Part shown: positions 7,917-24,000 of the stretch, piece after piece
Layout of the letters: the number at the start of each line of letters is the position of its first letter
How positions within the stretch are numbered: the first letter of the stretch is position 1
NCBI GenBank assembly: GCA_002437495.1
Contig: DJQA01000008.1
Span: forward strand, 128,251-152,250
From: Prevotellaceae bacterium UBA6398
Lineage (GTDB): Bacteria; Bacteroidota; Bacteroidia; Bacteroidales; Bacteroidaceae
Reading direction: 5' to 3'
DNA: 24,000 nt
The notes under the pieces: model-generated
Database searches by the model: none
What the model was told of the DNA's origin: nothing
Seen by the model: only the letters and a program-made list of their open reading frames with translations
Made by a program: the position numbers and the translations under genes

Positions 7917-8664
7917 CTCTGATAGCAGTTTTTTCTGCTTTTTCACTTTCCCACCTTTCCGTTTTTACAGGAACCACAGGATTTCCACTCTAAAATTACT
8001 AAGTTTTTCACACGCGGCGGCATGTTGGGAGCATTTTTTATGATTTTTATTTGCACACCGTGATTTTTGCGGTTTTTGCGGCTTAGAATTTAACATTCCA
8101 AGGGCAACGTAACCGGGAAACGCACCCTTGTCGATGCCAAAATCCACCGCGAAAACAGATGCCCGAAATTCCACCCCGCACATCATTTCCGTATCCCATC
8201 CGCCGGCACATCCGTGCGCCCTCAATCCCACCGCACAAAGGGCAGCCCACACTCCGGTGCCATAAGTCGGCACCGCCGGCATTTCTCCTGCCGCCCTTGC
8301 GTCCTCCGGGCTTCAAAAATTCCACCCAAACACCTTTTCACGGCGGACGCGTCTTTTAGATTTCGCTTTTTACAAAATATACAAGATTTTACATTACAAG
8401 TTAACAGATACGTAACAATCAGTGAAAACTCCTTTTGGCACAAATTGTCGAATCATTAATTATAAAGACGGCAAAATTAAACATAGGTTTAATTTTGTGT
8501 TTCAAATTAACATATTATTTTCACACGAGCGTACACCGCCACCGAACATAATTTCACAGTATTTAAGCATAATCACTCCACGGGCATATATGTTTTGCCG
8601 TGGCATTCGGACATTGGGGCCTTTGGCGCGACCATGCTCCTGCGCGAACTTGCAGAAAGCTATC

Positions 8665-8785
8665 AGCCATCGAATTGCGCCGCCATTGGTGCAATAGTTT
8701 GCTTTGTTTGCACGGTGCGGTTCATGCGGCGGAGTAAAGGGCGTATGCCATACGCCCCTACAATTTCCGCAAAACCAATACCGCC
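8665..8785 (+). repeat. REP/BIME-like module, copy A (one intact GC hairpin plus a hairpin-less remnant)
   Basis: The hairpin GGGCGTATGcCATACGCCC lies at 8739-8757. Its flanks, CGGTGCGGTTCATGCGGCGG..(hairpin)..CTACAATTTCCGCAAAACCAATACCGCC, are shared with copies at 11458-11526 and 23818-23886. Positions 8665-8686 match the CAACCAA.GAATTGCGCCRC junction of copies B and E but lack the hairpin. Confidence 0.8.
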
Positions 8786-8909
8786 AAAATTATATTTGAC
8801 ATCGGAAAAACTACATAGGACATAGGAAAAATTATATCAGACATAATTCAATTTACATCAGACCTTTTTTCTCCACTTACAAACGTCTTAAAAACAAAAA
8901 CTTACAAAA
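8786..8909 (+). repeat. Phased 21-nt mini-palindrome array plus T-run plus A-rich tail, copy A
   Basis: A-tract starts at 8786, 8806 and 8827, with the fourth unit starting near 8848. Units include CTACATAGGACATAGG, ATTATATCAGACATAAT and the half-unit TTACATCAGACC followed by T6 (8865-8870). The tail GTCTTAAAAACAAAAACTTACA lies at 8885-8906. Confidence 0.85.
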
Positions 8910-8989
8910 TCGGGACAAATCCTGCCTAACTTCCGCAAACCATGGGATCAGCAAATCTGCCCCTTCATGCCCCACAAATCCGAAACACA

Positions 8990-9029
8990 CAAACCGCAGC
9001 CTTGGCCGTTATGCCTTAGCTGCGGTTTG
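8990..9029 (-). terminator. Candidate intrinsic terminator after the 684-aa FAS1 gene
   Basis: Near-perfect 11-bp inverted repeat: CAAACCGCAGC (8990-9000) and GCTGCGGTTTG (9019-9029) with an 18-nt loop. It sits 63 nt past the stop at 9092. On the minus strand it is followed by a moderately T-rich stretch (TGTGTTTCGGATTTG). Confidence 0.4.
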
Positions 9030-9091
9030 CTTTGCCTTATAAGGATTGGCGTTTGCGGCAAACTTCATCATGCCTTTTTACGCCAACCGCT

Positions 9092-11146
9092 TCACCATTT
9101 ATCCTCGGGTTTTGTACCGTTGTAAACGCTCTTGGGTACCCATTCTATGAAATCGGGACCGAAGTTTGCAGGACCGTTGAGCAGCGACTTCATACGCATA
9201 TAATATGTAACTCCGGGGCGGCAGTTCGCAGTTGTTACTATATGGCGCAATTTAGCCCCGCCCGGACCATAGTTTCGCCCACCTTCCGTAACATTTGTCG
9301 AGTTGAAGCCGAAACTGTTCGGGCACTTCATGAAAGTATGGTTGCGCATATTCTTGTCGTTCTCGCGGTTCACGTCGTTATCATCGGGATCGTCCTTTAT
9401 CCAGCCTATTACCGCCTTGTCGGGTTCTATGCGCGCATCAATGGGAAGCCCCACCGCCGTGAGATTGTTTGGGTCTTCCCCAAAATAGAACTGCAACATT
9501 CCGCGACCGCTGTCGTTGCAATAGCCAAGGCGCAATTCATATATTCCTTCGTATGGCACAGGTGGAAGCTGCCACGTTATGTCGTAATATCCTTCAAGCA
9601 CAAAGTCATCGGCCTCGTAGTTAAGCCAGTTGATGTTGTAGTTGTTTATGGATATGAGCAGCGTCTGGTCCGTGAATTTCACTTTGCGCAGATAGCCGGA
9701 GGGAATCATATTGTATATGTTTGTGGGCTGCTGGCGCAGGCCGTTCGTCATAAGCTCATGCTGCATTGTCTGCGTGTCCCAGCGCATACGCTCGTTAAGC
9801 ACCTTGTACCTTACAACATCGTCATATACAAGCACGCCGTCAATCATGTGGTAGAAACCGTTTAGAGCCTGGTTGTCGCGTGTGCCGTTGCCCGACTGCA
9901 CGAGGATTCCCTTTATGGGCACCTCCAGCTCGCGGTAGCTGTCATCGTCATACTCGCTGACATAGCGGTTAATCCTTATCCCTTCTGTCTGCTCGCCGAG
10001 CGTGAACTTCAATATGCGGTGTTCCTTGCCCATAGTCTCGTAATACTCGAACTTGTCTATACCGAGTTGCTCCGGGCGGTTGTATGAATAACCCAACTGT
10101 CCTTTGGTGATGACAATATTATTATATGCCATGCTCACGTCAACTATATGGTATCCCACAAACTGGTTCAAGGCGTTGTCAATACTCGTCGGGTCGTCCG
10201 ACGAAGCATCGGGATAGTATTCTTTCACCTTTTGGTTTATCACAGGCATAACCTCGTCCCAATTAACCACGTTGCCGCCCACAACCTCGAGCTTTATCCC
10301 CCATTCGGCCTCGAGCAAACTGTCGGGCTCAACAAATGCCGTATAACCCCAATTGTGATGTAGGGGTTCGTTGAGCCTTTCGCTGTACCATATATGTTTG
10401 TAGTTCTGCGGGTGATCTTGCAGCTCGTACTCGTCATCACGGTATTTTGCCATGCTGTCGCCCCACGAAGTAACCTCAAGCAGGTGTGAGAAGATTCGTG
10501 TATTGTCCTGCATTCCGAGAAGTCCGGGGAGCGTTGTCGATGCCGGCATTACCACATTGTCAACCACGTGCACCTGCCCGTTCTCCACCTCGTTGTCCGA
10601 GCTTATTATTCGCGAGAAAGTATTGATGCGGGTTATCACCTTGCCGCTATCGTTTGGCTGAAAGTTTATAACAATGTATCTGTCGGCCATGGTCTTAAGC
10701 TGCAGAACGCCCTCCTGGAAGTCGGTTGACTTGTAAGCCTCTACATCACCGTTGTCAATTATGCTGTTGAACACTATAACCTGCGCCAGGGAGTCGCTAA
10801 CCAAGTTTATGTCATAATTGCTTTGGTTTTCAACCGAGTCAACAAACTCTTGTATTGCATCGTTTGTAGGAATGAAACACGTGTAGTTGCCACGGCTTTC
10901 GAGCATGTGGTCCATTGTGGAGCCGCGACCCATTCCGGAACGTGCCTTTTTGAGCAGAATTAGGTATTTGCTCAATTCGGGCTGCTCCTTGACGAAATCC
11001 GCGGCACTCTGCCCTGTGAAAACATAAAGATTCGACTCGTCAATTTTATCCGAACACGAACCGAGCGTTATTCCGGCAACCAACAAAGACACCGCAAGCA
11101 CAAAACGTGCTATCCCTTTTGCAACAATGCAGTCTGAAATTTTCAT
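9092..11146 (-). CDS. Surface lipoprotein with an N-terminal fasciclin (FAS1)-like domain
   Basis: 684-aa ORF with lipoprotein signal ..LLVAGITLGSC followed by SDKIDE. It carries an FAS1 H1 motif (YTCFIPTNDAIQEF), an H2 motif (ENGQVHVVDNVVMP) and a second H2-like motif (LNGFYHMIDGVLVY). I could not assign the C-terminal ~350 aa to a family. Confidence 0.65.
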   Translation of the reverse strand: MKISDCIVAKGIARFVLAVSLLVAGITLGSCSDKIDESNLYVFTGQSAADFVKEQPELSKYLILLKKARSGMGRGSTMDHMLESRGNYTCFIPTNDAIQEFVDSVENQSNYDINLVSDSLAQVIVFNSIIDNGDVEAYKSTDFQEGVLQLKTMADRYIVINFQPNDSGKVITRINTFSRIISSDNEVENGQVHVVDNVVMPASTTLPGLLGMQDNTRIFSHLLEVTSWGDSMAKYRDDEYELQDHPQNYKHIWYSERLNEPLHHNWGYTAFVEPDSLLEAEWGIKLEVVGGNVVNWDEVMPVINQKVKEYYPDASSDDPTSIDNALNQFVGYHIVDVSMAYNNIVITKGQLGYSYNRPEQLGIDKFEYYETMGKEHRILKFTLGEQTEGIRINRYVSEYDDDSYRELEVPIKGILVQSGNGTRDNQALNGFYHMIDGVLVYDDVVRYKVLNERMRWDTQTMQHELMTNGLRQQPTNIYNMIPSGYLRKVKFTDQTLLISINNYNINWLNYEADDFVLEGYYDITWQLPPVPYEGIYELRLGYCNDSGRGMLQFYFGEDPNNLTAVGLPIDARIEPDKAVIGWIKDDPDDNDVNRENDKNMRNHTFMKCPNSFGFNSTNVTEGGRNYGPGGAKLRHIVTTANCRPGVTYYMRMKSLLNGPANFGPDFIEWVPKSVYNGTKPEDKW

Positions 11147-11269
11147 TTTTATTATTTTACATTTTACGCTTCGAATTTAGAAATTTTTCATCAAAGCGCA
11201 AAGGCAAATTTGAATTTTTCAATAAAGTAATTCTCCACCGGGGCTTATGCCGCACATTTTGCACGAAAT

Positions 11270-11526
11270 CTGCCGTTCTGTATGCCGCGCCGTGCCGACG
11301 GATGCCAATGTACTTCAAGCGGCGGAGTAAAGGGCGTATGCCATACGCCACATAAATACACCGCTCATAATCAACCAACAAATTGCGCCGCTGTAGGGGC
11401 GTATGGCATACGCCCTGAATTGAGCGGATTTGCGGCGTTTGGGCAGCAGTTTGCGACGCGGTTCAAGCGGCGGGGTAAAGGGCGTATGCCATACGCCCCT
11501 ACAATTTCCGCAAAACCAATACCGCC
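11270..11526 (+). repeat. REP/BIME-like cluster, copy B (three GC hairpins in + / inverted / + orientation)
   Basis: Hairpins lie at 11332-11349, 11392-11416 (TGTAGGGGCGTATGGCATACGCCCT) and 11480-11498. Positions 11392-11416 are a perfect 25-nt reverse complement of 11479-11503. The flanks are shared with copies A and E. Confidence 0.85.
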
Positions 11527-11547
11527 CGTTCTTTCTCAAACACTCCC

Positions 11548-11668
11548 AAAATTATATCTGACATCGGAAAAACTACATAGGACGTAGAAAAAATTATGTC
11601 TGATATAATTCAAATTACATCAGACCTTTTTTCGGCCATTACAATCCGCTGAAAAACAAATCGTTATG
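11548..11668 (+). repeat. Phased 21-nt mini-palindrome array plus T-run plus tail, copy B
   Basis: Units are AAAATTATATCTGACATCGG, AAAAACTACATAGGACGTAGA, AAAAATTATGTCTGATATAAT and TCAAATTACATCAGACC followed by T6 (11627-11632). The tail is ..GCTGAAAAACAAATCG. Confidence 0.85.
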
Positions 11669-11783
11669 TGTCTTTCTGTTTGTTTGTGCATTTTTCTGAA
11701 AATCAAAATCTTACGCAAGCCGGAGCGCTCGTGTATCAATCAAAAGCCTAACGGCAAAACTCCGTGTGCATACACAAAACAAA

Positions 11784-11814
11784 GCTGTCGCGAAGCGCGA
11801 AACTTCACGACAGC
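11784..11814 (-). terminator. Candidate intrinsic terminator after the YfhO-like gene
   Basis: The minus strand reads GCTGTCG-(17 nt)-CGACAGC followed by TTTGTTTTGTGT. The arms are at 11814-11808 and 11790-11784. It lies 24 nt past the stop at 11838. Confidence 0.5.
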
Positions 11815-11837
11815 CTTGCTCTGTATATATCAAATGC

Positions 11838-14438
11838 TTATTTTACGGCAGACACACCCTTTTTGCGGCGCAACGACACAACCACCGCCATAACGAGCGC
11901 GAGAAGCATTACGGCAAGAGCCGCATAGGCTACAGCCTCTGTGGTGTGGAGCGACTGCGGGTCGAACTTCAGGACGAGCGTATGCTGCCCCGCGGAAACC
12001 CTTAGCGCACGCAGCACATAGTCGACACGTCCTATGGGAATGTCCTTGCCATCGAGCGTTGCCGTCCATCCCGGATAGTAAATTTCCGAAAGCACAACCA
12101 CACCGCCGCCACGCGAGTTGAGCTTGTATGTAAGCTCATTCGGCTCGTATGCCGTAAGCGTGATTTTAGCCGTTGTGTCGGCGGCGGCATTCGCATACGC
12201 CGCGCCAAGCTCCTTTTCGAACTCCTTGTCGGCCACGGCCTCAACGCGGCGGTTTATATTCTTGAGCAGGGACATCTCGGCTTTTGCCCCGTCAACATAT
12301 GTCAGCTTGCCAACAAACCACGCATTGCCATAGGCGCACGGGTTCTGAATAGGAACGGTTTTACCGTCCTGCAAAGGCAGTATAAAATACTTGCCGTTCA
12401 ACATATTTATTGTGGGGCATATCGAGTCGGCATTGAATTTCGAGAAATCGCCGCCGGTTTGCGGTATCACCTTCATAAGTTCCTGCATTTCGGGCACTAT
12501 ACACTGCGTTATCAAATCCTGGTAACGTCCGAGCTTGGCTGCGTGGTAGCCTCCTATGCTCTTGTGCCAGTACGATGTCTCATTCTCGTTGAAAGTGTCG
12601 GACGCAAAGTTAAGCACACGATAGTCAAGGCTCTTGTCCTGCAATATCCGCTCATCGGTCTCGGTTTTGGCAAACACCTGCTGCTTTTGCAGCGGGTCAA
12701 CGAACATTTCGTTGTTAAGATACCTGCGGTTCACGCCCCACATATCCACGAGACAAAGCGCCGTTACGGCAACAACCATCCATGTAGCCTTCAACTTTCC
12801 GCTGCGATATATCATAAGTATTGCCATGCCAACGGCTATAACCCAAAAACTTCTCCAGGCATCGGCAGAGAGTATGGAGTGGCGTATTGCCGTTATGTCG
12901 GCTGAGAAAGAGTTAACCGTTTCGGGCGGTATTATCCCGCGCAGCTCATTCAGCACGTGGTGCTCGCCACTCGTGAGGCAGTCGCCGAAGAACGTTCCGG
13001 GCATCACCGCAAACAAAACGCACAACCCCGCCGTTACCCCGAACGATATGTAAAGCGGTATAGGTTTCTTGCGCAGCAGGTCCGGCTCCGATGCAATTCG
13101 CGACAGCGTGAGTGCGGCGAGCAGAGGAATTGCGAACTCGGCAACAACAAGGATTGACGATACGGCGCGGAATTTATTGTACATCGGGAAATTGTCAATC
13201 ATCCAGTTTGTGAACGCAGGGAAGTTATGCCCCCACGAAAGCAGCATGGAAAGCACCATGAGCAGCATGAGGCTACGGCTAACCGCTCCTTTTAAATAGA
13301 AAAGCGATAGGACGAAAAGCATGCACACAAATGCGCCAACGTACACAGGGCCCGAGGTTCCCGGTTGTTCGCCCCAGTATTGCGATAGTCCCGGTGTGCT
13401 TCCCCCGAGCTGCGGGTAAAGCTGCTGCAGAGTCTGCATATACTCGGCGAAGTGGGAGTTTGCCTGCGCTTTCTCGTTTGCCGTGAGTGCGCCGCTTGCA
13501 CCTCCTTTAACGTTAGGCACGAGGAGCGAGAAAGTCTCCCCCTTGCCGTAGCTCCACTGAGTGATGTATTCCTTCGACAGTCCCGATGAGGCTTTCTTGC
13601 CCCCTTCGGCGGGAGACGCGAGCTCGCTGCTGCCGCGCATGGTTTGCTTGCTGTACTGGTACGTGTGGTAAAGGTTCGACGAGTTCACCGCCACGCCGAC
13701 CAGCGAAGCCGCCACAAAAACGCCCACGCCCTTTGCAAACCTTGCAAGCTGCCTCTCCCTCACCGCCGTAATAAGGAAGCCGAGAGACATAAGCACCATG
13801 GCGAAGATGAAGTAGTATGTCATCTGCAAGTGGTTCGACAAAATCTGCCACGCAATGAAAAACATTGTCATCACTCCGCCCCACAGGTATTTTCCGCGAT
13901 AGCAAAGCACCATTCCCGCCACCGTGGGAGGGATGAATGCAAGCGTAAGCACTTTCCAAAGGTGCCCCGCCCCTATTATTATGAAGAAATACGACGAAAA
14001 CGCCCATGCCACCGCGCCGAAAACCGCCACGGAGGGGCGTGCGCGGAACGTGCGCATAAGGATGTAGAAACCCAGAAGAAGGATGAACACATACATTGCG
14101 CAGTCGGTCAGACCTAGTTCGTACACCCTTTCAAGCCCCGACAAAACACTGCGCGACTTGTAGCTCGGCGCTATCTGATACGTCGGCATACCGCTGAAGA
14201 GGGCGTTCGTCCAACGGGTGTCGTTGCCCGTGCGTTCGAGATATTCCATTCTTTCGCGCCCCGCGCCCACGCCGCCTGTGATGTCGTTGCCCGAAAGCAC
14301 CAGTCCCTGGGTCATGGGAGTGATGAAATACGCCACAGACACGAGCACAAACAGCACAACAGCCACCGCGTCGGGCGCAATGCGCCTCAGCCACGGGCTG
14401 CCCTGCTTTGCCTTTTGGTTTTCGCTGTTCATATTCAT
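11838..14438 (-). CDS. YfhO-like polytopic membrane protein (putative GT-C-type glycosyltransferase)
   Basis: 866-aa ORF with many predicted TM helices in the first ~560 aa, then a soluble domain and a terminal TM helix. The N-terminal pattern (..FITPMTQGLVLSGNDITGGVGAGRERMEYLERTGNDTRWTNALFSGMPTYQI) resembles Bacteroidetes YfhO-family proteins as I recall them. The family assignment is unverified. Confidence 0.55.
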   Translation of the reverse strand: MNMNSENQKAKQGSPWLRRIAPDAVAVVLFVLVSVAYFITPMTQGLVLSGNDITGGVGAGRERMEYLERTGNDTRWTNALFSGMPTYQIAPSYKSRSVLSGLERVYELGLTDCAMYVFILLLGFYILMRTFRARPSVAVFGAVAWAFSSYFFIIIGAGHLWKVLTLAFIPPTVAGMVLCYRGKYLWGGVMTMFFIAWQILSNHLQMTYYFIFAMVLMSLGFLITAVRERQLARFAKGVGVFVAASLVGVAVNSSNLYHTYQYSKQTMRGSSELASPAEGGKKASSGLSKEYITQWSYGKGETFSLLVPNVKGGASGALTANEKAQANSHFAEYMQTLQQLYPQLGGSTPGLSQYWGEQPGTSGPVYVGAFVCMLFVLSLFYLKGAVSRSLMLLMVLSMLLSWGHNFPAFTNWMIDNFPMYNKFRAVSSILVVAEFAIPLLAALTLSRIASEPDLLRKKPIPLYISFGVTAGLCVLFAVMPGTFFGDCLTSGEHHVLNELRGIIPPETVNSFSADITAIRHSILSADAWRSFWVIAVGMAILMIYRSGKLKATWMVVAVTALCLVDMWGVNRRYLNNEMFVDPLQKQQVFAKTETDERILQDKSLDYRVLNFASDTFNENETSYWHKSIGGYHAAKLGRYQDLITQCIVPEMQELMKVIPQTGGDFSKFNADSICPTINMLNGKYFILPLQDGKTVPIQNPCAYGNAWFVGKLTYVDGAKAEMSLLKNINRRVEAVADKEFEKELGAAYANAAADTTAKITLTAYEPNELTYKLNSRGGGVVVLSEIYYPGWTATLDGKDIPIGRVDYVLRALRVSAGQHTLVLKFDPQSLHTTEAVAYAALAVMLLALVMAVVVSLRRKKGVSAVK

Positions 14439-14460
14439 TATATATTATATGACGGTAAAC

Positions 14461-14487
14461 GGAGAAGCGGCGCTTTGCCGCGTCTCC
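14461..14487 (-). terminator. GC-rich hairpin between ahcY and the YfhO-like gene (weak terminator or attenuator candidate)
   Basis: GGAGAaGCGGCgctttGCCGCgTCTCC sits in the 60-nt gap. The U-tract on the minus strand is poor (GTTTACC), so read-through co-transcription is plausible. Confidence 0.3.
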
Positions 14488-14498
14488 GCCATTACTTT

Positions 14499-15914
14499 TT
14501 AATATCTGTAGAAATCGGCTTTGTAAGGACCGTCAACTTTCACGCCGATATAGTCGGCCTGTTCCTTGGAAAGCTTGCTGAGGTGTGCGCCGACACTTGC
14601 AAGGTGCAGACGCGCCACTTCTTCGTCGAGCGACTTGGGAAGGCGGTAAACGCCAACCTCGTATTTCTTGTTGAAAAGTTCAATCTGCGCAAGAGTTTGG
14701 TTTGTGAACGAGTTGCTCATCACAAAGCTCGGATGCCCGGTGGCGCAACCGAGGTTCACAAGGCGGCCGTCGGCAAGCAGCGTTATGTGGTGTCCGTCGG
14801 GGAACTGGTAGCTGTCCACCTGCGGTTTGATGTTCTCGTGCTTTATGCCGGGAACTTTCTTCAGCTTCTCAACCTGAATTTCGCTGTCAAAGTGTCCGAT
14901 GTTGCACACTATGGCCTCATCGGGCATCTGCTTCATGTGTTCCACCGTTATAACGTCGATGTTGCCCGTTGTGGTAACGAAAATGTTGCCCACCGGCGCA
15001 GCCTCCTCCATGGTAACCACCTTGAAGCCCTCCATTGCGGCCTGAAGGGCGCAAATCGGGTCAATCTCGGTTACAAGCACGCGTGCGCCATACGAGCGCA
15101 GGCTCTGGGCGCAGCCCTTGCCCACTTCGCCGTAGCCGGCAACCACAGCCACCTTGCCGGCAACCATCACGTCGGTTGCGCGCTTTATGCCGTCAACCAG
15201 CGACTCGCGGCAGCCGTAAAGGTTGTCGAACTTGCTCTTGGTAACACTGTCGTTCACGTTGAAAGCCGGGAAAAGCAACTCGCCCCTCTCGGCCATCTGA
15301 TACAGACGGTGCACGCCGGTTGTAGTCTCCTCGCTCACGCCGCGTATTTCCCTGGCGGTCTTTGCCCAGCGTTCGGGGTCGGCAGCAAGAACCTTCTTGA
15401 GAATTTCCTTGAGTGCAGCCTCGTCTCCGCTCCCGCTCGGAGTGTCGAGCACGGAAGCGTCCTTCTCGGCCTTTGCGCCGAGGTGTATCATGAGGGTTGC
15501 GTCGCCGCCGTCGTCAACAATCATGTTGGGCAGCTTGCCTCCGGGGAAGTTCATCGCCTGAAGCGTGCACCACCAATAGTCCTCAAGGCTCTCGCCCTTC
15601 CATGCGAACACGCCCACGCCCATGTCGGCAATAGCCGCTGCGGCATGGTCCTGGGTGCTGTATATGTTGCACGAGCACCAGCGCACCTCGGCCCCGAGAG
15701 CCACAAGGGTCTTTATGAGCACGGCGGTCTGTATGGTCATGTGCAGCGAGCCCATTACACGCGCCCCTTTCAATGGCTTAGAGCCGCCATACTTTGCCTG
15801 CAAGGCCATCAGACCCGGCATCTCGTGTTCTGCTATACGAATTTCCTTGCGGCCGAAATCGGCCAAACCGATATCTGCCACCTTGTAGGGCAGAGCGGAA
15901 AACAGTTCTTCCAT
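14499..15914 (-). CDS. ahcY: Adenosylhomocysteinase (S-adenosyl-L-homocysteine hydrolase)
   Basis: The 471-aa ORF looks like AhcY along its full length. Examples: [49 protein letters not shown], the NAD site [24 protein letters not shown], and C-terminal ..[10 protein letters not shown]. Confidence 0.97.
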
Positions 15915-15949
15915 TCTTATATTATATTGTATATGTTTCTAATTGGAAG

Positions 15950-15957
15950 CAAAGATA
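15950..15957 (-). promoter_or_regulatory. Candidate -7 box (TATCTTTG) of the ahcY promoter
   Basis: The minus strand reads ..ttttttatagcTATCTTTGcttcc.., which matches TAnnTTTG. It lies about 36 nt upstream of the ATG at 15914. No clean -33 TTTG sits at the expected spacing. Confidence 0.4.
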
Positions 15958-16049
15958 GCTATAAAAAACGAGAAACGGAAAAGGCGGGGGAAAGGTGTGT
16001 GAGCCGGGGATAAGGTGCTTCAAAAATTCGGGCATGATTGCGCGGTATG

Positions 16050-16115
16050 CATCTGCGGTTCGGGCGATGGCATACATGGCGCGTGGCATGCGCCCCTGCA
16101 AATGTCGCAAAGCGC
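16050..16115 (+). repeat. Degenerate REP-like module, copy C
   Basis: GCGTGGCATGCGCCCCTGCAAATGTCGCAAAGC aligns with GCGTATGCAATACGCCCCTACAAATGGCGCAAAAC of copy E, but the palindrome is eroded. Confidence 0.5.
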
Positions 16116-16145
16116 AAATCGATTGCCCTTGGCAAAACACGCATA

Positions 16146-16266
16146 ATACCATATGGGACATAGAAAAAACCATGTCCCATGTAGAAAAAATCATGTCTGA
16201 TGTAATTAAAACTACATCAAACCTTTTTTTGCCCATTTCAAGTCCTTGAAAAACAAAAACTTGCAC
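16146..16266 (+). repeat. Phased 21-nt mini-palindrome array plus T-run plus tail, copy C
   Basis: Units are CCATATGGGACATAGA, AAAAACCATGTCCCATGTAGA, AAAAATCATGTCTGATGTAAT and TAAAACTACATCAAACC followed by T7 (16224-16230). The tail CCTTGAAAAACAAAAACTTGCA lies at 16244-16265. Confidence 0.8.
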
Positions 16267-16351
16267 TTTATTGCTTATACGTTGTCTTCTTCTTGAAAAC
16301 CAGCATCTTACGGAAATTTCCGCAATATGCGCCAAGCGCATGACACGCCCC

Positions 16352-16371
16352 AAAAAACGCAGCCCGGCTGC
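16352..16371 (-). terminator. Candidate intrinsic terminator of the redox operon
   Basis: The minus strand reads GCAGCCgGGCTGC (16371-16359) followed by GTTTTTTGGGG, with the T6 at 16357-16352. It is about 100 nt past the stop at 16474. Confidence 0.45.
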
Positions 16372-16473
16372 ATTGCCAAAGCTGCTGATTGTTTCGTGTT
16401 GTGGCTGGCGCTTATTTGTCCACACACGCCCACACGGTGAAATGGTTCTATTAAGTTTATTTTCCTCCCTTAC

Positions 16474-16986
16474 TCAACGGCGCACAATGCGGTTTATGAA
16501 CAGCCAGCCTCCAAGCACCTGCAAAAGCATTCCGGGAAGCCCTATTCGCAAGCTCTGCACCGCCACACCGAAAGAGCCCGTCATTGCCCATTCGCCCAAC
16601 GTGCCTATTCCCTGATAGCACAAAACCACAATGGCGAGCAGCGGGAGCGAGGCTTTTTTGTAACGCGCCGATGCCATGCCGGCGGCAATGGCGAGCAATG
16701 CCGACTTAATAAGTATCGAAGGCAGCACTTCCGGGGCGGGCATTGAGAAGAGCGCGGAGTTTGCCAGAGGGGAAAGCACGGCAACCATAAGCCCCACGCG
16801 CCAGCCGTATTTGTAAGCACCCACAAGGGTGAAGAAATATATCGGCAGCCATGTTGCCCCGCCCTGGTGCACAAGGTGGAACAGCCGGGGCAACACAACG
16901 TTGCCCAATGCAAACAACACTGCCGCCAAGTAGGCTTTCGTGTCGCCATATCCGAGAGAATACAGTTTTACTGTTCTTGATTCCAT
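16474..16986 (-). CDS. Small polytopic membrane protein (~5 TM helices), possibly ECF S-component-like
   Basis: 170-aa hydrophobic ORF and last gene of the operon, 19 nt after the DUF1893-like stop. The pattern ..WLPIYFFTLVGAYKYGWRVGLMVAVLSPLANSALFSMPAPEVLP.. recalls solitary vitamin or precursor S-components (ThiW/NiaX-like). That similarity is an impression only. Confidence 0.3.
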   Translation of the reverse strand: MESRTVKLYSLGYGDTKAYLAAVLFALGNVVLPRLFHLVHQGGATWLPIYFFTLVGAYKYGWRVGLMVAVLSPLANSALFSMPAPEVLPSILIKSALLAIAAGMASARYKKASLPLLAIVVLCYQGIGTLGEWAMTGSFGVAVQSLRIGLPGMLLQVLGGWLFINRIVRR

Positions 16987-17005
16987 GATTGTTTTATAAT
17001 TGTAT

Positions 17006-17449
17006 TCAGTTTGTTCTACTTTCCGTTTGTTTTCTTTTTGAGAGTTCCGCGATTGTCTCTTTTATTGCGCATAGCATTTCGCGGGGCGACTGCAAGTGCT
17101 CGCACGCCTTTTCCATGGGACACCACCCCGTGCCATCGCGGTTTGTTATGTGCTGCACTTCCTCGGCAAACTCCACCTCCACGCCGTTATCGCGCAGCAG
17201 CGAAACGGCAGGCGTGCTTATGATATGGCCATACACACCCGCCACTTTGCCGAGAACCATGAGCGCGGCGGCGGCTTTTCCCACCACCTTGTCGGCAATT
17301 CTCGCACCATGCAACACACGCGGCTCCTCATCAAGCAGTCGCAGCAAATCTTTCACTCCCCGTCCGTCGAAAGTGCGCACCACGCGGTTCTCAACCACAA
17401 GAGAATGTCTGCCCATCTCCAGCAGTTCCGCAAGTTGTGCGTTTGTCAT
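17006..17449 (-). CDS. DUF1893 / TM1506-like protein (deaminase-like fold family, function unknown)
   Basis: 147-aa ORF with no signal peptide. The sequence (..HSLVVENRVVRTFDGRGVKDLLRLL..ADKVVGKAAAALMVLGKV..VYGHIISTPAVSLLRDNGVEVEFAEEVQHITNRDGTGWCPMEK) matches my memory of DUF1893. Its ATG overlaps the upstream stop (ATGA at 17446-17449). Confidence 0.5.
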   Translation of the reverse strand: MTNAQLAELLEMGRHSLVVENRVVRTFDGRGVKDLLRLLDEEPRVLHGARIADKVVGKAAAALMVLGKVAGVYGHIISTPAVSLLRDNGVEVEFAEEVQHITNRDGTGWCPMEKACEHLQSPREMLCAIKETIAELSKRKQTESRTN

Positions 17450-18867
17450 AGCGTGCCTTGCTTTAGCTGTTCCACAAAATGGTCTATACGCTGCATTTCC
17501 TTGGGTATGTCAATGTTCTGCGGGCAATGTTCCACGCATTTTCCGCACCCTATGCAATGGTTGGCCTGACGCAGCCGGGGAACGCTGCGGTCGTAGCCCA
17601 CAAGGAAAGCCCTGCGCGCCCGGCGGTAGTTCTCCGCCTGGCGGCTCTCAGGCACATCGCCCTCGTTGACGCATTTGTTGTAATGCACGAATATGGCAGG
17701 AATGTCTATTCCATAGGGGCAGGGCATACAATATTTGCAGTCGTTGCATGGGATTGTGGGGTATTGCACAATTATTTCGGCAGTGTCGTAAAGAAACTTT
17801 GTCTCATCGTCGGTAAGCGGCTTCAAGGGGCAGTATGAGCGCAGGTTGTCTTGCAAATGTTCCATATACGTCATACCGCTTAGCACCGTGAGCACACCGG
17901 GCATTGTGCCGGCATAACGAAACGCCCACGAAGCCACGCTCCTATCGGGCTCGCGCTGCTTCAATCGCGCCACCACGTGGTCGGGAACCTTAGACAGTCT
18001 GCCGCCGAGCAGCGGCTCCATTATCACGGCGGGGATGTTGCGCTTCGCAAGCTCGCCATAAAGATATTCGGCATCGGTGTTGAAAGAGTTAAGTTCCTTG
18101 GCGTGCTGCCAGTCAAGGTAATTGAGCTGTATCTGCACAAAGTCCCACTTGTAGCGGTCGTGCTGCGAAAGCAAATAATCAAACACCTTTATGTCGCCGT
18201 GGTAGGAAAAGCCGAGGTTGCGCACTCTGCCGGCCTCGCGCTCGGCAAGCAGAAAGTCGAGCACGCCATTGTCAACATACCGCGCCCTATAATCCTTCAT
18301 GGCATCGCCACCCATGCCAACGCCGTGAAGCAACATGTAATCTATATAATCAACCTGCAAATACTTCATCGAGTTGCGGTACATCTCCAAAGACTTTTCG
18401 CGGCTCCATGTCGAGGGGTCGAAATTGGAAAGCTTGGTGGCGATGAAAAACTTGTTGCGGGGGTGGCGTTTCAAGGCTATGCCCGTGGCCTCTTCCGAAT
18501 GTCCCTTGCAATAAGCCGGGGATGTGTCGAAATAGTTCACCCCATGCTCTATGGCATAATCCACAAGGCGGTTCACGGCTTCCTGATCTATTTTTTCCTC
18601 GCCCTCTCTCGCGCCTTCGTCGGTAACCGTGGGCCAACGCATGCAGCCGTAGCCGAGAATTGAAACCTTTTCGCCCGTCTTGGGATTTGTGCGATATGTC
18701 ATTTTGTCTTTCGGAATCTCTCCCGATGCCTTTGTGGTTTCGCCGCTTACGGGGTTTTTTCCGGATTCGCAGCCCGCCAGAACGGCAGAGGCGGAGAGTG
18801 CCGCGCCCGCGCCGAGTTTTTTCAGAAACTCACGCCTGCATATATTTTCTTTGCCTATTGTATTCAT
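17446..18867 (-). CDS. Tat-signal lipoprotein aldo/keto reductase with a C-terminal 2x[4Fe-4S] ferredoxin domain
   Basis: The ORF track gives 17446-18963. I prefer the ATG at 18867, 7 nt after the upstream stop. That start gives MNTIGKENICRREFLKKLGAGAALSASAVLAGC, a twin-arginine motif RREFLKK followed by the lipobox LAGC. The AKR catalytic tetrad context is retained: FDTSPAY, IATK, MLLHG. The C-terminus has CNDCKYCMPCP and CIGCGKCVEHCP. Confidence 0.75.
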   Translation of the reverse strand: MNTIGKENICRREFLKKLGAGAALSASAVLAGCESGKNPVSGETTKASGEIPKDKMTYRTNPKTGEKVSILGYGCMRWPTVTDEGAREGEEKIDQEAVNRLVDYAIEHGVNYFDTSPAYCKGHSEEATGIALKRHPRNKFFIATKLSNFDPSTWSREKSLEMYRNSMKYLQVDYIDYMLLHGVGMGGDAMKDYRARYVDNGVLDFLLAEREAGRVRNLGFSYHGDIKVFDYLLSQHDRYKWDFVQIQLNYLDWQHAKELNSFNTDAEYLYGELAKRNIPAVIMEPLLGGRLSKVPDHVVARLKQREPDRSVASWAFRYAGTMPGVLTVLSGMTYMEHLQDNLRSYCPLKPLTDDETKFLYDTAEIIVQYPTIPCNDCKYCMPCPYGIDIPAIFVHYNKCVNEGDVPESRQAENYRRARRAFLVGYDRSVPRLRQANHCIGCGKCVEHCPQNIDIPKEMQRIDHFVEQLKQGTL

Positions 18868-18874
18868 AATTCTC

Positions 18875-20353
18875 TCAAATGGTTTTATGCTGTTCATGCC
18901 CTTCAACATATATTGCTCCAAAAGGACGCGCCGGACACAGGTTCTCGCACGCTCCGCAGCCAATGCAGCGTTCCTCGTTTACCACGGGAATCTTTAAGGA
19001 GTTGTGCTTTTGCGGGTCGGAAGGCACCATTGTTATCGCCCCTGCGGGACAGTGGCGCGCGCAATTGCCGCATTCCACTCCGTCTGCGATAGGCAAGCAG
19101 TTTTTGCCCACCCAAACCGCATGACCTATCTGTATCGATGATTTTTCGGCAGGAGTGATTTCAAGGATTGCGCCGGCAGGGCATACTTCAGAGCATTTGG
19201 TGCATTCGGGGCGGCAGTATCCGCGCTCATAAGAGGAATGTGGCTTCATAAGCTTACCGGGGCGGAGCACATCGTTGGGACATACGGCAACGCATAGCTG
19301 ACATCCGGTGCAATGCTCATCCAAATGTTTCAAGCCGACAGCTCCCGGCGGCACTATCGGGGTGTTACGGTTAGGTATCTTCTTGTCGAGAATCACTGCC
19401 AAGCCGCCGTCAACGGTCTTACCCCGAGCGTTCGCCACCGCCGCGCCGAGAATAATGCCGGCTCCCGTCAGGAAACTGCGGCGCGAAGCGTCGGGAACTT
19501 TTTTAGGTGTTTCCACCGCTGTTTTTGAAGAAGTTCCCTTTTTGCGCAGTTCGAAATGCAGCGCACCATGCCTGCAACCGTCCACACAGTCCATGCATGC
19601 CACGCAGCGGGAATAGTCTATCTTGTGATTCTTGTAGTCAATGCACGAAGCCTTGCAGCCACGGGCGCAAATCGAGCAGTTGCTGCACTTGCCTGCATCT
19701 ATCACTGGTCGGAAAAGCGAATAACGCGAAACAAAACCCAGAAATGTACCCACAGGGCAAATGGTATTGCAATAAGTGCGTCCGCTGCGCCATGCCAACA
19801 CCGCCACCACCACAAAAGTAACTGCGGCAAGGATTAGCGTTGAAAGGGCGCGGAGCCACACATCCCTTTCATAGAAAGCATAGCTCCCCATGCGCTCGGA
19901 AATGTATGCAAGCAAGTTGTTTCCCCATGTATAAAGCGGTGCAAACATGGTCTGAGCCATTCTGCCATATGCGCTGTAGGGGTCGAGCAAGCCCGCCAGC
20001 CCGGTGAAAGTCGCCGCCACAAATAATGCAAGAACCGCATAGCGCAGCCACGCCTTCGCACCTGAATACGAGAAACGTAGTTTTTTGCCCTTGCGCCTTG
20101 CGCTAAGCCGGGAAACCACATCCTGGAAAACGCCGAGCGGACAGATTACCGAACAATAAACACGCCCGAAAAGAAATGTCAGCAACAGCACCACGGCAAT
20201 AACGCCGATGTTCATAGCCATCACAGCCGGAAAAAACTGGATTTTCGCCATCCAGCCGAACCAGGCGTGGACTGTTCCCGTAAAATCAAGGAACAGCATA
20301 CTGACAAGCGCAAAAAACACGGTTGCCAGGATAATTCTTATTTTACGCAGCAT
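18875..20353 (-). CDS. Membrane polyferredoxin, apparently a NapH-like/NapG-like fusion
   Basis: The ORF track gives 18875-20422. The likely start is MLRKIRIIL at 20353, because AT-rich promoter-like sequence overlaps the longer ORF. The N-terminal TM region has two CxxxCP motifs (CSVICPLG, CNTICPVG). Two ferredoxin motifs follow (CSNCSICARGC, CVACMDCVDGC). Next comes an internal SRRSFLTGAGIILGAAVANA segment. Four more cluster motifs follow: CTGCQLCVAVCP, CTKCSEVCP, CGNCARHCP, CIGCGACENLCP. Confidence 0.7.
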   Translation of the reverse strand: MLRKIRIILATVFFALVSMLFLDFTGTVHAWFGWMAKIQFFPAVMAMNIGVIAVVLLLTFLFGRVYCSVICPLGVFQDVVSRLSARRKGKKLRFSYSGAKAWLRYAVLALFVAATFTGLAGLLDPYSAYGRMAQTMFAPLYTWGNNLLAYISERMGSYAFYERDVWLRALSTLILAAVTFVVVAVLAWRSGRTYCNTICPVGTFLGFVSRYSLFRPVIDAGKCSNCSICARGCKASCIDYKNHKIDYSRCVACMDCVDGCRHGALHFELRKKGTSSKTAVETPKKVPDASRRSFLTGAGIILGAAVANARGKTVDGGLAVILDKKIPNRNTPIVPPGAVGLKHLDEHCTGCQLCVAVCPNDVLRPGKLMKPHSSYERGYCRPECTKCSEVCPAGAILEITPAEKSSIQIGHAVWVGKNCLPIADGVECGNCARHCPAGAITMVPSDPQKHNSLKIPVVNEERCIGCGACENLCPARPFGAIYVEGHEQHKTI

Positions 20354-20406
20354 GGTAGTATTATTTTCATTGATAAATATAATTGTTATGTAATCCTGTT
20401 CCGGTG

Positions 20407-20414
20407 CAAAAATA
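20407..20414 (-). promoter_or_regulatory. Candidate -7 box (TATTTTTG) for the redox operon
   Basis: The minus strand reads ..gtttgtTATTTTTGcaccgg.., which matches TAnnTTTG. It lies about 54 nt upstream of the ATG at 20353. A second match, TAATTTTG, lies at 20470-20463. Confidence 0.3.
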
Positions 20415-20530
20415 ACAAACATCGCGCTTTTTGCCGCTTATATTTTTTACTGATTTGCATACCAAAATTACCGCACTCCCGGTTTTTCATCCCCCGGCTT
20501 CAGACTGCCGGAAAATTACACCTGAAATAA

Positions 20531-20620
20531 AAAAAACTATGTCTGATGTAGAAAAAACTACGTCAGACGTAGGAAAAATTACATCAGACCTTTTTCCGCC
20601 TTTTTCAAATCTCTTAAACA
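20531..20620 (+). repeat. Phased 21-nt mini-palindrome array plus T-run plus degenerate tail, copy D (three units, no intact REP hairpin)
   Basis: Palindromes are CTATGTctgATGTAG (20537-20551) and CTACGTcagACGTAG (20558-20572). The half-unit TTACATCAGACC (20579-20590) is followed by T5. Unit starts are spaced exactly 21 nt apart. The flanks at 20455-20475 and 20625-20700 retain only fragments of the REP-module linkers (CCAAAATTACCGC, GGATTTGCAATACCGC, AAATTGCGC). Confidence 0.8.
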
Positions 20621-20740
20621 CACGGCGTTACAAGGGCGCGGATTTATTGCATCCACGCATGGATTTGCAATACCGCTTTTCGCAAAATTGCGCATTTATA
20701 GGCATTTTGTGCAAAAAACGGACGATTTTCGACTAAAAAT

Positions 20741-20771
20741 TTTGCCATATAAATCAATAGACTTAATTTTG
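20741..20771 (+). promoter_or_regulatory. Bacteroides-type promoter of acpP-fabF(-rnc)
   Basis: TTTG (20741-20744), a 19-nt spacer, then TAATTTTG (20764-20771). This leaves about 40 nt to the acpP ATG at 20813. Confidence 0.55.
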
Positions 20772-20812
20772 CATCCTGATATAACAATATTATTTATCAA
20801 ATTAGTAAGATC

Positions 20813-21049
20813 ATGTCTGATATCGAATCAAAAGTAAAAGCTATCATTGTTGACAAACTCGGTGTTGATGAAGCCGAAGTAAAGAACGACGCAAGTTTCG
20901 CAAACGATCTGGGCGCTGACTCTCTTGACACTGTAGAGCTCATCATGGAGTTCGAAAAAGAGTTCCAGATTCAGATCCCCGATGACCAGGCAGAGAAAAT
21001 CTCTACCGTGGGCGATGCTATAGCATATATCGAGAAGCACGTTAAGTAA
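20813..21049 (+). CDS. acpP: Acyl carrier protein
   Basis: 78 aa with the phosphopantetheine-attachment motif [20 protein letters not shown]. It sits immediately upstream of fabF. Confidence 0.97.
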
Positions 21050-21081
21050 TAGGCTTAACGCGCTTCCCATAACATCTCACG

Positions 21082-22347: not shown

Positions 22348-22396
22348 AACTTCGGGCATTAACAAGATTTTTCATTAAGTTGACACAAACATCTGA

Positions 22397-23512: not shown

Positions 23513-23588
23513 CACAAGGCGTTAGGCTAATAACAAAAGCATAAACCACAAGGGCGGACGGCTGAAAACGCGCCCTATGTTACACCAC

Positions 23589-23636
23589 AAAATTCCGCCG
23601 CACGGACGAACGATGCCTGTCCATGCGGCGGAATTT
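23589..23636 (+). terminator. Candidate terminator hairpin after rnc
   Basis: AAATTCCGCCGCA-cGGAC..GTCCa-TGCGGCGGAATTT forms a 13-bp outer stem plus a 4-bp inner stem. It is followed by TCTGTATG, so the T-tract is short. It begins 77 nt past the rnc stop. Confidence 0.45.
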
Positions 23637-23886
23637 TCTGTATGCGGTGCGGTTCATGCGGCGGCGGGCAGGGCGTATGCAACAAGCATCACGAACGCAC
23701 AAACAGCAATCAACCAAAGAATTGCGCCACTGTAGGGGCGTATGGCATACGCCCTGAATTGCGCGAATTTGCAATGTCGCGGCGCTGGTTTGCGGATTTT
23801 GCGGCGTATTCCCAAATGCGTTTCATGCGGTGGCGTACAGGGCGTATGCAATACGCCCCTACAAATGGCGCAAAACCAATACCGCT
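23635..23886 (+). repeat. REP/BIME-like cluster, copy E (degenerate + / inverted / + hairpins)
   Basis: A degenerate first module lies at 23645-23690 (CGGTGCGGTTCATGCGGCGG..GGGCGTATGCaacaagc). The inverted hairpin TGTAGGGGCGTATGGCATACGCCCT lies at 23731-23755. The third hairpin GGGCGTATgcaATACGCCC lies at 23840-23858. The cluster is collinear with copy B. Confidence 0.85.
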
Positions 23887-24000
23887 AAAACTACATCGGA
23901 TGTAGGAAAAACTACGTCCTATGTAGGAAAAATTATGTCTGATATAATTAAAACTACATCGGACCTTTTTTTGCCTACTTACAACATGCTGAAATTCAAA
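23887..24000 (+). repeat. Phased 21-nt mini-palindrome array plus T-run plus tail, copy E (tail cut by the window end)
   Basis: Palindromes are CTACATcggATGTAG (23891-23905), CTACGTcctATGTAG (23912-23926) and ATTATGTctgATATAAT (23932-23948). The half-unit CTACATCGGACC is followed by T7 (23966-23972). Confidence 0.85.

Follow-up and report, generated by a model that had tools for sequence, protein, structure and literature searches.

In the 24,000-nt stretch of a Bacteroidota genome that was analysed here (the window), five copies of one composite intergenic repeat are present, all of them on the + strand, and two of the four short units that form the array within this repeat exist in two exact mirror-image states. 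The part that differs is an asymmetric core, GTCYKAT / ATMRGAC, which lies between short inverted arms (4-6 bp, imperfect) and constitutes two exact mirror alleles at the second and third unit, u2 and u3. This confirms and extends the observation of the first-pass annotation, the interpretation of which is supported in part. With moderate confidence, we explain the two states by a core micro-inversion of the template-switch type, which generated mirror alleles that persist and are shuffled among the copies, with rotation being tolerated at u2 and u3. The two states, hereafter flip and flop, would then represent fixed variation and not a working switch.

The composite repeat and its five copies

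The window carries genes for a SusD/SusC-like pair, fasciclin-domain proteins, YfhO and AhcY, as well as acpP-fabF-rnc. Its nearest named relative among the matches listed is the MAG 'Prevotellaceae bacterium UBA6858', whose contig L067 is syntenic with window positions 7996-15988 at 83-91% identity. The five copies correspond to about one copy per 5 kb, and a two-unit pattern scan of one genome per species detected at least 85 loci, which among the matches listed come from four MAGs and are nearly all intergenic. The composite repeat is a mosaic that occupies the intergenic DNA of a Prevotellaceae clade in very high numbers, and our literature searches found no description of this repeat family. 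The neighbours of the arrays are chromosomal housekeeping genes on contigs of up to 326 kb, and a location at a replicon end was not encountered there. The repeat disrupts assemblies and generates spurious ORF calls, and the frames at 20431-20736 and 15995-16249, for instance, are artefactual.

The element begins with GTAG-headed GC-rich hairpins, often paired in inverse orientation; a module of about 21 nt, which is optional, may come next, and then follow the four-unit array, a T-run and a conserved tail. Within the array, the units u1-u4 follow each other with a strict 21-nt period, with A5-6 between the units and T5-7 at the end. The units u1-u3 are full 15-nt quasi-palindromes of the form YTAYRT-NNN-RYRTAR, and u4 is a half unit, CTACATCAGACC. 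The terminal letters differ in that u1 and u2 end with GTAG (GTAG/CTAC at their ends), whereas u3 ends with ATAA.

The array of copy A covers 8786-8870 (+), with u1 at 8790-8804 (TTATATTTGACATCG), u2 at 8811-8825 (CTACATAGGACATAG, flip), u3 at 8832-8846 (TTATATCAGACATAA, flip), the half unit u4 at 8853-8864 and the T-run at 8865-8870; all units of this copy have a single polarity. In copy B (11548-11632, +), u1 lies at 11552-11566, u2 at 11573-11587 (CTACATAGGACGTAG, flip), u3 at 11594-11608 (TTATGTCTGATATAA, flop), u4 at 11615-11626 and the T-run at 11627-11632. Copy C (16145-16230, +) is composed of u1 at 16149-16163 (CCATATGGGACATAG), u2 at 16170-16184 (CCATGTCCCATGTAG, flop), u3 at 16191-16205 (TCATGTCTGATGTAA, flop), u4 at 16212-16223 and a T-run at 16224-16230. 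Copy D (20512-20595, +) has u1 at 20516-20530, u2 at 20537-20551 (CTATGTCTGATGTAG, flop) and, at 20558-20572, a u3 that is a perfect palindrome with two CpG (CTACGTCAGACGTAG), followed by u4 at 20579-20590 and the T-run at 20591-20595. Copy E (23887-23972, +) begins with a u1 that is likewise a perfect palindrome (23891-23905, CTACATCGGATGTAG) and continues with u2 at 23912-23926 (CTACGTCCTATGTAG, flop), u3 at 23933-23947 (TTATGTCTGATATAA, flop), u4 at 23954-23965 and the T-run at 23966-23972.

The conserved tail of copy A at 8871-8915 (+) contains the motif YGCCACTTGCAAAC..CTGAAAAACAAA..TTAYAA, and equivalent tails follow the arrays of copies B-E. The tails are less conserved than the arrays (65-75% vs 82-92%), and a consistent match to a Bacteroidetes promoter (TTG ... 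TAnnTTTG) was not seen in them by eye on either strand. The GC-rich hairpins are situated upstream of the arrays and read on one strand GTAG-GGGCGTAT-[T/G]GC-ATACGCCC; in 104 of 115 copies, GTAG is found on one side only. A REP-like hairpin of this kind lies at 8738-8762 on the - strand, with the minus-strand reading (T)GTAG followed by GGGCGTATGGCATACGCCC. Just upstream of array B, two such sequences form a REPIN-like doublet (11392-11503), in which 11392-11416 (+) and 11479-11503 (-) are 100% complementary over 25 nt and 62 nt apart, and upstream of array E (23731-23863) the GTAG-headed hairpin again occurs as an inverted pair, 23731-23756 and 23838-23863, with 96% complementarity over 26 nt.

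Several conventional identities of the repeat were considered and dropped. The 21-nt period equals seven codons and could in principle encode a heptad repeat (K-T-M/T-S-D-V/I-E/G), but the best frame is open in only 35 of 69 arrays, and AGG loops result in TAG stops. Rfam returned no family at gathering thresholds for the whole window and only chance-level matches (E>2) in 8600-9000, and a known RNA family was therefore abandoned. A CsrA-type sponge RNA would expose GGA in hairpin loops; GGA is found in some units only, and the orientation of the arrays is random relative to the genes. To our knowledge, CsrA is absent from Bacteroidota.

Two mirror-image states of the inner units

The first-pass annotation had noted strings that are exact reverse complements of each other in different copies, and all of them were found in the window at their positions. 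The sequence at 8831-8847 is ATTATATCAGACATAAT, and both 11593-11609 and 23932-23948 are ATTATGTCTGATATAAT, the exact reverse complement of ATTATATCAGACATAAT. Similarly, 11573-11587 is CTACATAGGACGTAG and 23912-23926 is CTACGTCCTATGTAG, the exact reverse complement of CTACATAGGACGTAG. Neither the A5 spacers nor the order of the units changes between the copies. Chance is excluded as source of this mirror relation: according to our calculation, only 1 of 12,285 triple substitutions of a 15-mer results in the reverse complement when there are three differences, and for the commonest u2 pair, with its seven differences, the odds are about 1 in 1.4e7.

For a census, 70 non-redundant canonical arrays were compiled from the window and from at least 85 matches listed in four related genomes, with u4 and the T-run as anchor. 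In these arrays from the matches listed, the exact reverse complement of a unit is present at the same slot of another copy for 61 of the 70 u3 units, for 49 of the 69 u2 units and for none of the 69 u1 units. The main pair at u3 is TTATGTCTGATATAA (n=29) and its reverse complement TTATATCAGACATAA (n=21) in the 70 arrays from the matches listed, next to a rarer mirrored pair (n=4/3) and perfect-palindrome intermediates (n=5). At u2, there are three mirrored pairs (four by another count) with 19/9, 7/1 and 6/4 members among the matches listed. Both states are found at intermediate frequency in each genome sampled. Such a census had been proposed to distinguish a continuum of point mutants from two states, and what it reveals is two discrete mirror states with no continuum; single-step variants amount to about 5%, and a single transition suffices to convert these few exceptions into a main state. 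Within each unit, the arm mismatch has a polarity (G..T vs A..C) that is nearly fully linked to that of the loop (u2 20/2/1/46, u3 27/4/1/37), with Fisher p values of 4e-14 to 1e-17. The linkage tables and the exact mirror states thus bear out the claim that a block was inverted, as opposed to independent point mutations.

What could point mutations contribute nevertheless? Without any inversion, the two states would have to originate mainly from CpG decay of ACGT to ATGT or ACAT. A perfect CpG-bearing unit exists in u3 of copy D (CTACGTCAGACGTAG), and one-CpG intermediates are common (CTACGTCCTATGTAG, CTACATAGGACGTAG), and therefore some arm differences are CpG transitions. However, the triplets in the loops also form reverse-complement pairs (AGG/CCT, CAG/CTG, CGG/CCG), the polarities of loop and arm agree in about 95% of the units, and the two combinations with perfect arms, for which CpG decay predicts 50%, account for at most 7%. 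An origin from independent point mutations is hence hardly credible, and CpG decay, which is refuted as full explanation, survives only as source of the CG/TG/CA variants within each state. This decay is moreover one-sided, as CG-type flops have changed to TG at position 4 in 39 cases and to CA at position 5 in one case, and the flips mirror this. Since one-sided decay keeps one GTC/GAC per unit together with the mismatch, its direction points to a constraint on the sequence and not on hairpin stability.

The inverted block is smaller than initially described. Inversion as such stands, but it is not the whole 15-17-mer that turns as a block. The A-tracts show zero turns in canonical arrays, and the outermost 3 nt of each arm are likewise never turned. 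A GCAG variant at the 3' arm of u2 occurs together with flop (n=11) and with flip (n=3), and no unit was seen with its mirror image, CTGC, at the 5' arm; at locus E of contig L092, the inner 7 nt of u2 are inverted relative to the orthologs, and GCAG is kept. As GCAG stays in place while the core turns, the inverted block comprises the inner 7-9 nt.

The dimorphism is confined to u2 and u3. In the case of u1, 34 units are perfect-armed, 26 are of the flip type and only 2 of the flop type, which is thus almost never found, and its CGG or TTG centre is never reversed. The half unit u4 is always of the flip type. The GC-rich hairpin has perfect arms of 8-9 bp and a 3-nt asymmetric centre, and this centre has one orientation relative to the GTAG head in all informative copies (104:0).

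Persistence, exchange and folding of the mirror alleles

Six contigs from other samples are >99.9% identical to window positions 10813-24000, and they have the same states at copies B, C, D and E. Only around u4 of copy E do these strains show a clustered difference, with three substitutions in 25 nt that resemble a conversion tract. Strains are also uniform in state within two other species-level groups. In a metagenome scan for heterogeneity within the species, an anchor specific for copy B yielded nothing, and an anchor for locus E yielded five loci with no flip and with one mosaic allele. The identical states in seven assemblies of >99.9% identity and in the two other species-level groups, which are consensus sequences in which minor variants are invisible, argue against the ongoing switching that had been considered.

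Over longer distances, the states do change. Orthologous arrays of lineages that are 86-91% identical remain in register, and orthologous loci at 2-14% divergence show flips, usually inside clusters of changes that have the appearance of ectopic conversion. The arrays are more conserved than the surrounding intergenic DNA (92% vs 75-84%, 83% vs 57-73% and 82% vs 51-74%), with flipped cores being scored as mismatched. At the loci of copies A and B, u2 is flip in the window, L102 and L092, and flop in L094 and L098; in L067, u2 of copy B also has the state opposite to the window. The u3 of copy A is flop in L105, a perfect-pair variant (TTATGTCAGACATAA) in L102, and flip in the other lineages. 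The u3 of copy C is TCATGTCTGATGTAA in the window and TTACATCAGACATAA in L092, which is a mirrored, rare variant, and u2 of copy E is mirrored in L092 relative to all others. The state of copy D is the same in all ortholog lineages. At locus C, L094, L098 and L102 differ from L105 at only three inversion-predicted sites, with 54 nt being otherwise identical, and in all four of these the entire composite element is oriented opposite to the window. In the comparison of L105 and L106 (same AhcY protein, 97.6% identical), a u2 flip lies inside 12 differences over about 45 nt, and the 100-nt bin with this flip contains 15 differences vs 0-5 per 100 nt in the adjoining bins (1-2 in the flanks by another count); no donor for this tract was found in the related DNA searched. 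In L114, the left half of element E is replaced, resulting in a mosaic, and in L092 GCAG is found in all u2 units, which is a family-wide concerted change. A palindrome-perfecting double change, CA -> TG, is seen in u1 of copy E. Ectopic conversion could give the same pattern of changed states and of this perfecting change, and the clustered multi-site differences between close lineages appear to point to such conversion.

In these comparisons, clustered conversion-like replacements dominate the short-term dynamics, and the inversions behind the mirror alleles could be many and recurrent or few and ancient. It is possible, albeit doubtful, that there were only one or two ancient inversions and that all present flip/flop differences came about by ectopic conversion or recombination, without any recurrent inversion. 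Conversion-like clusters are found wherever close relatives differ, the flipped-u2 lineages at loci A and B differ across the entire left half of the element, and the minor core variants (CCG, CCC, CTG) are less often flipped than the main variant (17:2 vs 29:18), all of which would be in line with such a history, as would the concerted change to GCAG in every u2 of L092. On the other hand, the core states of u2 and u3 are unlinked to polymorphisms of the neighbouring spacers or to the first base of u4, only 5-10 nt away, although the tracts seem to be 25-50 nt long, and the four different mirrored u2 pairs would require parallel mutations in both orientation classes. In any case, a history with few inversions is a sub-case of the core micro-inversion that we favour, and not its opposite.

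A rival reading, which follows the first-pass annotation, is an active, continuing flip/flop via DNA hairpin or cruciform intermediates, or via an HUH or other hairpin-binding nuclease; the annotation had taken the units to extrude as DNA hairpins in vivo. Formally, the relocated mismatches in mirrored imperfect palindromes resemble the terminal flip/flop of parvoviruses and poxviruses, and the arrays are adjoined by GTAG-headed REP-like hairpins, which are RAYT substrates in other phyla (PMC3733652). However, single units are predicted to be barely stable as hairpins: the common u2 and u3 forms have energies between 0 and -1.1 kcal/mol (RNA) or between 0 and -1.8 kcal/mol (ssDNA), which means marginal hairpins. 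The array of copy A, predicted at -4.2 kcal/mol as ssDNA (z -0.6), is all of one polarity and folds no better than shuffles, and the arrays that do fold are joined by pairing between units, not within them. If hairpins were to drive the flipping, the most stable palindromes would be expected to flip most, but both the GC-rich hairpin (104:0) and the perfect-armed u1 never do so. All sites lie inside the chromosome; single units flip while their order is kept, whereas a terminal resolution inverts the whole inner region; and near-identical strains show no heterogeneity. The 24,000-nt window is without a nuclease, transposase or recombinase gene, and a tblastn search for RAYT / IS200 in 0.93 Mb of related DNA gave nothing, which is a weak test, as the IS200 TnpA query is approximate. 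Two matches of this probe are at chance level, and the one that was checked runs antisense to a real gene. An active hairpin-based flip/flop is therefore very improbable. Among the mechanisms that had been listed for it, hairpin-primed replication and cruciform resolution belong to replicon ends or long palindromes and do not agree with internal chromosomal sites with 4-6-bp arms, whereas template switching at a quasi-palindrome fits.

Whole arrays behave differently from single units. As single strands, their predicted energies have means of -21 and -26 kcal/mol vs -10 kcal/mol for shuffles, and the ssDNA energies are about -9 to -10 kcal/mol for copy B (z about -2.2) and about -11 to -12.5 kcal/mol for copy E (z -3.6 to -4.4). 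In these folds, u1 pairs with u2 and A6-u3 with u4-T6, or the pairing is nested, and the topology depends on which states the units have. It is thus conceivable, though quite improbable, that the polarity of u2 and u3 is functional in the single-stranded form, and that a flip toggles between a two-hairpin, terminator-like fold and one nested hairpin, with both being selected. Besides the folding of whole arrays and the z values of copies B and E, this would agree with the fact that u1 is the exact reverse complement of u2 in some arrays, including rare variants (L092, L067, L071); the u1/u2 loop complementarity, counted by eye in 12-13 of 26 cases vs about 8 expected, is suggestive only. Selection of such folds should however be visible as covariation between units, and this candidate sign was dismissed, as the states of u2 and u3 are independent (25/17/10/9, p = 0.78), as are those of u1 and u2 (p = 0.78). 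Arrays with the same polarity in all units are not depleted (9 observed vs about 8 expected), and there is therefore no sign of selection for a single-strand fold. The poor folding of copy A also stands against a single-stranded role, and so does the CpG decay, which retains the mismatch instead of improving the pairing.

Nor does the gene context support such a role, since arrays are found in all contexts, divergent promoter regions included. Array orientation is random relative to the flanking genes (++16, +-14, --14, -+9), and with these mixed contexts and a u3 state that does not consistently track 3' gene ends, a consistent terminator role was discarded. The orientation relative to GC skew is 25:24, which rules out a replication-polar motif. 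There is a weak association of unit state with the direction of the flanking genes, with flop 14 / flip 17 for (+,+) and flop 22 / flip 6 for (-,-) (p = 0.015, based on crude ORF calls and 59 units), which could be counted in favour of a toggled fold; if it is real, rotation is not fully neutral. Unit pairing is strand-asymmetric, in that the pairing possible on one strand fails on the other, and flop pairs with G.U on one strand and flip on the other. Because neither state is rare, and because the states of the two units vary independently of each other and, apart from this weak association, of gene orientation, a strand-specific RNA hairpin is not the sole selected feature, as had been argued before.

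How, then, could the mirror alleles of the core micro-inversion have come about? The nascent strand would switch to the complementary strand in one arm and return in the other, which is an interstrand template switch that inverts the core in place. Inversion of spacers or loops by such switching is documented (PMC8794818, PMC8604942), and the flips as well as the palindrome-perfecting double changes would be explained by the same process. Both alleles would then persist in the multi-copy family and spread among its hundreds of copies by short-tract ectopic conversion, possibly with further inversions. Selection or homogenisation would preserve the core, with one GTC/GAC per unit, and the A-tract phasing, but would be blind to the rotation of u2 and u3. 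Such a combination of indifference to rotation with sequence conservation is expected of a duplex site, because in a duplex either rotation presents one and the same site, and a strand-specific RNA or ssDNA hairpin predicts otherwise. A duplex-level reader might thus be involved, for example a symmetric protein with the units as its sites, and the A-tracts could phase these sites on one helical face. As the stable u1 and the GC-rich hairpin (104:0) never flip, against a purely mutational ranking, position-specific selection must be assumed in addition.

It is unlikely that the inner units are genuinely invertible modules, turned by a RAYT-like HUH enzyme or by repair at an ssDNA stage, or that their cores are sites of symmetric proteins at which rotation tunes architecture or termination. 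If this were the case, hundreds of micro-invertible sites per genome would provide gut Prevotellaceae with a regulatory layer that is spread over the genome and switches slowly.

Comparison with known systems

Most of what is known on micro-inversion at very short inverted repeats stems from reporter assays and from isolated cases in comparative work. The present genome appears to contain hundreds of nearly identical sites in two mirror states, with u1, u4 and the GC-rich hairpin as internal controls. This offers a natural system for what sets the inversion rate and what selection tolerates, in which, given complete genomes or long reads, template switching could also be told apart from ectopic conversion. 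A composite repeat of very high copy number, with GTAG-headed hairpins and A-tract-phased mini-palindromes, is herewith documented in an uncultured gut Prevotellaceae clade. Should rotation matter, for which the weak link to gene direction is a hint, the element would represent a cis-element of a new type.

The terminal hairpins of parvoviruses (AAV ITR) and poxviruses share with the array two mirror states and a mismatch that moves to the other arm (PMC8956199 for poxvirus). They are ends of linear replicons, however, where the two forms are made in each replication round by hairpin transfer or resolution, occur at about 1:1, and result from inversion of the whole inner block. The units of the array are internal in the chromosome and stable among strains, and they turn singly with their order kept. 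The invertible promoters of Bacteroidales comprise segments of hundreds of bp, are accompanied by recombinase genes and are heterogeneous within a culture. They are found in the same host order and also have a segment between inverted repeats in two orientations, but the segment of the array has only 7-9 bp, the window is without a recombinase gene, and the assemblies are without heterogeneity.

With the REP/BIME/REPIN sequences of Proteobacteria, the element has in common that abundant imperfect palindromes are extragenic, with GTAG at one hairpin end and with inverted doublets, and that modules form mosaics which are conserved at orthologous sites and evolve in concert. It differs in its Bacteroidota host and in that the weak test mentioned above detected no RAYT gene in 0.93 Mb of related DNA, and a mirror-image dimorphism of single modules is not a described feature of REP/BIME. 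For the A-tract-phased array of 15-nt mini-palindromes, we know of no counterpart. In a survey of GTAG repeats, the Bacteroidetes are among five phyla with CGTC repeats (PMC3733652).

The closest parallel to the flip/flop is the inversion of spacers between short inverted repeats, as known from Ripley-type quasipalindrome mutagenesis, from template-switch mutations (TSM, Löytynoja) and from the chloroplast 'small inversions', and the shared feature is an exact reverse complement between arms with intact flanks. Events in that system are recurrent and reversible, are accompanied by a 'perfecting' of arms and need no dedicated enzyme (PMC8794818, PMC8604942, PMC12928735). Its documented spacer inversions have arms of >9 bp (PMC8604942), and the chloroplast small inversions have arms of 11-24 bp (PMC12928735), whereas the arms in the array are imperfect and have 4-6 bp, and the arm mismatch is carried along and not corrected. 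A further difference is the family-wide dimorphism of 30-40% at two of four units, with longer perfect palindromes remaining uninverted. The trend of template-switch inversion with arm length and stability is accordingly not followed here, as 4-6-bp arms flip while the GC-rich hairpin with its 8-9-bp arms (104:0) and u1 do not. With these differences, the flip/flop works like short-inverted-repeat spacer inversion and stands outside both the flip/flop of terminal hairpins and the recombinase-driven switches, and the whole element most resembles the REP/BIME/REPIN mosaics.

Possible exchange and concerted change among array copies

The array of copy E ends in a segment (window 23949-23972) at which the window differs from the orthologous stretches of other assemblies, L086-L089, by 3 substitutions in 25 nt (TTAAAACTACATCGGACCTTTTTTT vs TTCAAACTACATCAGACCTTTTTCT), while elsewhere the strains compared here differ at just 2-8 sites per 13 kb. 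As the alternative form agrees with the family consensus, this suggests a short-tract ectopic conversion. On a larger scale, the 3' arm of u2, the second quasi-palindromic unit of the array, is changed from GTAG to GCAG or ACAG throughout the related lineage L092, where all five of the 5 arrays carry the altered arm and none do so in the window lineage; the change is also seen in L094, L098 and L102. Such a lineage-wide change indicates either concerted evolution or a co-evolving recognition. In one strain (L090), an M13 peptidase gene has been duplicated in tandem together with its array (~3.2 kb), and the two resulting arrays (L090:15711-15800 and 18888-18980) are identical.

Orientation, modules and variant arrays

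In the intergenic site between a 170-aa gene and ahcY, the complete composite element (~400 nt), including hairpins, array and tail, is opposite in orientation between lineages, as judged by comparison of window 15915-16473 with L094:9446-10015, L098, L102 and L105. This can be either an inversion of the whole element or an independent insertion. Elements also differ by an optional module of ~21 nt between hairpin and array (CCGTTCTTTCTCAAACACTCCC-like, with the consensus ..TTCTTTCCCAAACACCCCG), which is found at window 11505-11547 and missing at 8764-8785, and whose presence varies among copies as well as among orthologous loci (L094 and L092 equivalents compared). In variant arrays (L016:5887-5990, L063:2531-2613, L082:7777-7860; also L079, L010 and L003), one or two unit-plus-spacer modules are turned as a block, which places T-tracts where A-tracts are expected and generates perfect 20-bp palindromes (AAAAATTATGTCTGATGTAG / CTACATCAGACATAATTTTT). 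A second type of array, with TCACGTCGTACGTAA units, A7-8 spacers and a terminal T-run, forms a larger palindrome (L027:4281-4360 and L081:122-190; Bacteroidales MAG W0P31.024); it is distinct from the window arrays, yet probably related to them.

Arrays and coding sequence

Because the 21-nt period equals 7 codons, arrays give rise to spurious ORFs (window 20431-20736, 15995-16249 and 11282-11587; L086:5183-5437), and for one of these, containing ...KKTMSDVEKTTSDVGKITSDLF..., public assemblies list a gene of 84 aa. The 7-codon frame that yields KKTMSDVEKTTSDVGKITSDLF is open in only 35 of 69 arrays. The core of the third unit, u3, in its flop state, i.e. one of two mirror-image forms, recurs without change over its 11 nt as ATGTCTGATAT in the acpP start codon region (window 20813-20823). 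Such matches are expected by chance at ~0.01 per 24 kb, and the identity may just reflect the MSD N-terminus.

GTAG-headed hairpins and their distribution

The GC-rich hairpins near the arrays (window 8738-8762, 11392-11416, 11479-11503, 23731-23756 and 23838-23863, with further ones of this type at 11331-11349 and ~16070-16093) are GTAG-headed on one strand and read there as GTAG+GGGCGTAT[T/G]GCATACGCCC. In 104 copies, the hairpin centre keeps one orientation relative to the GTAG head without exception. Dozens of composite elements and GTAG hairpins also occur on CAVCON01 contigs (L004, L006, L009 and others) of a bin named 'Oscillospiraceae bacterium', which probably is wrongly labelled or contaminated; outside this bin, they were found in Prevotellaceae/Bacteroidales MAGs. 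These REP-like, GTAG-tagged repeats of the Prevotellaceae lineage appear not to have been described before. Inverted pairs are frequent among the hairpins, with a spacing of 62-81 nt, and in forming such pairs the hairpins of the window resemble REPINs.
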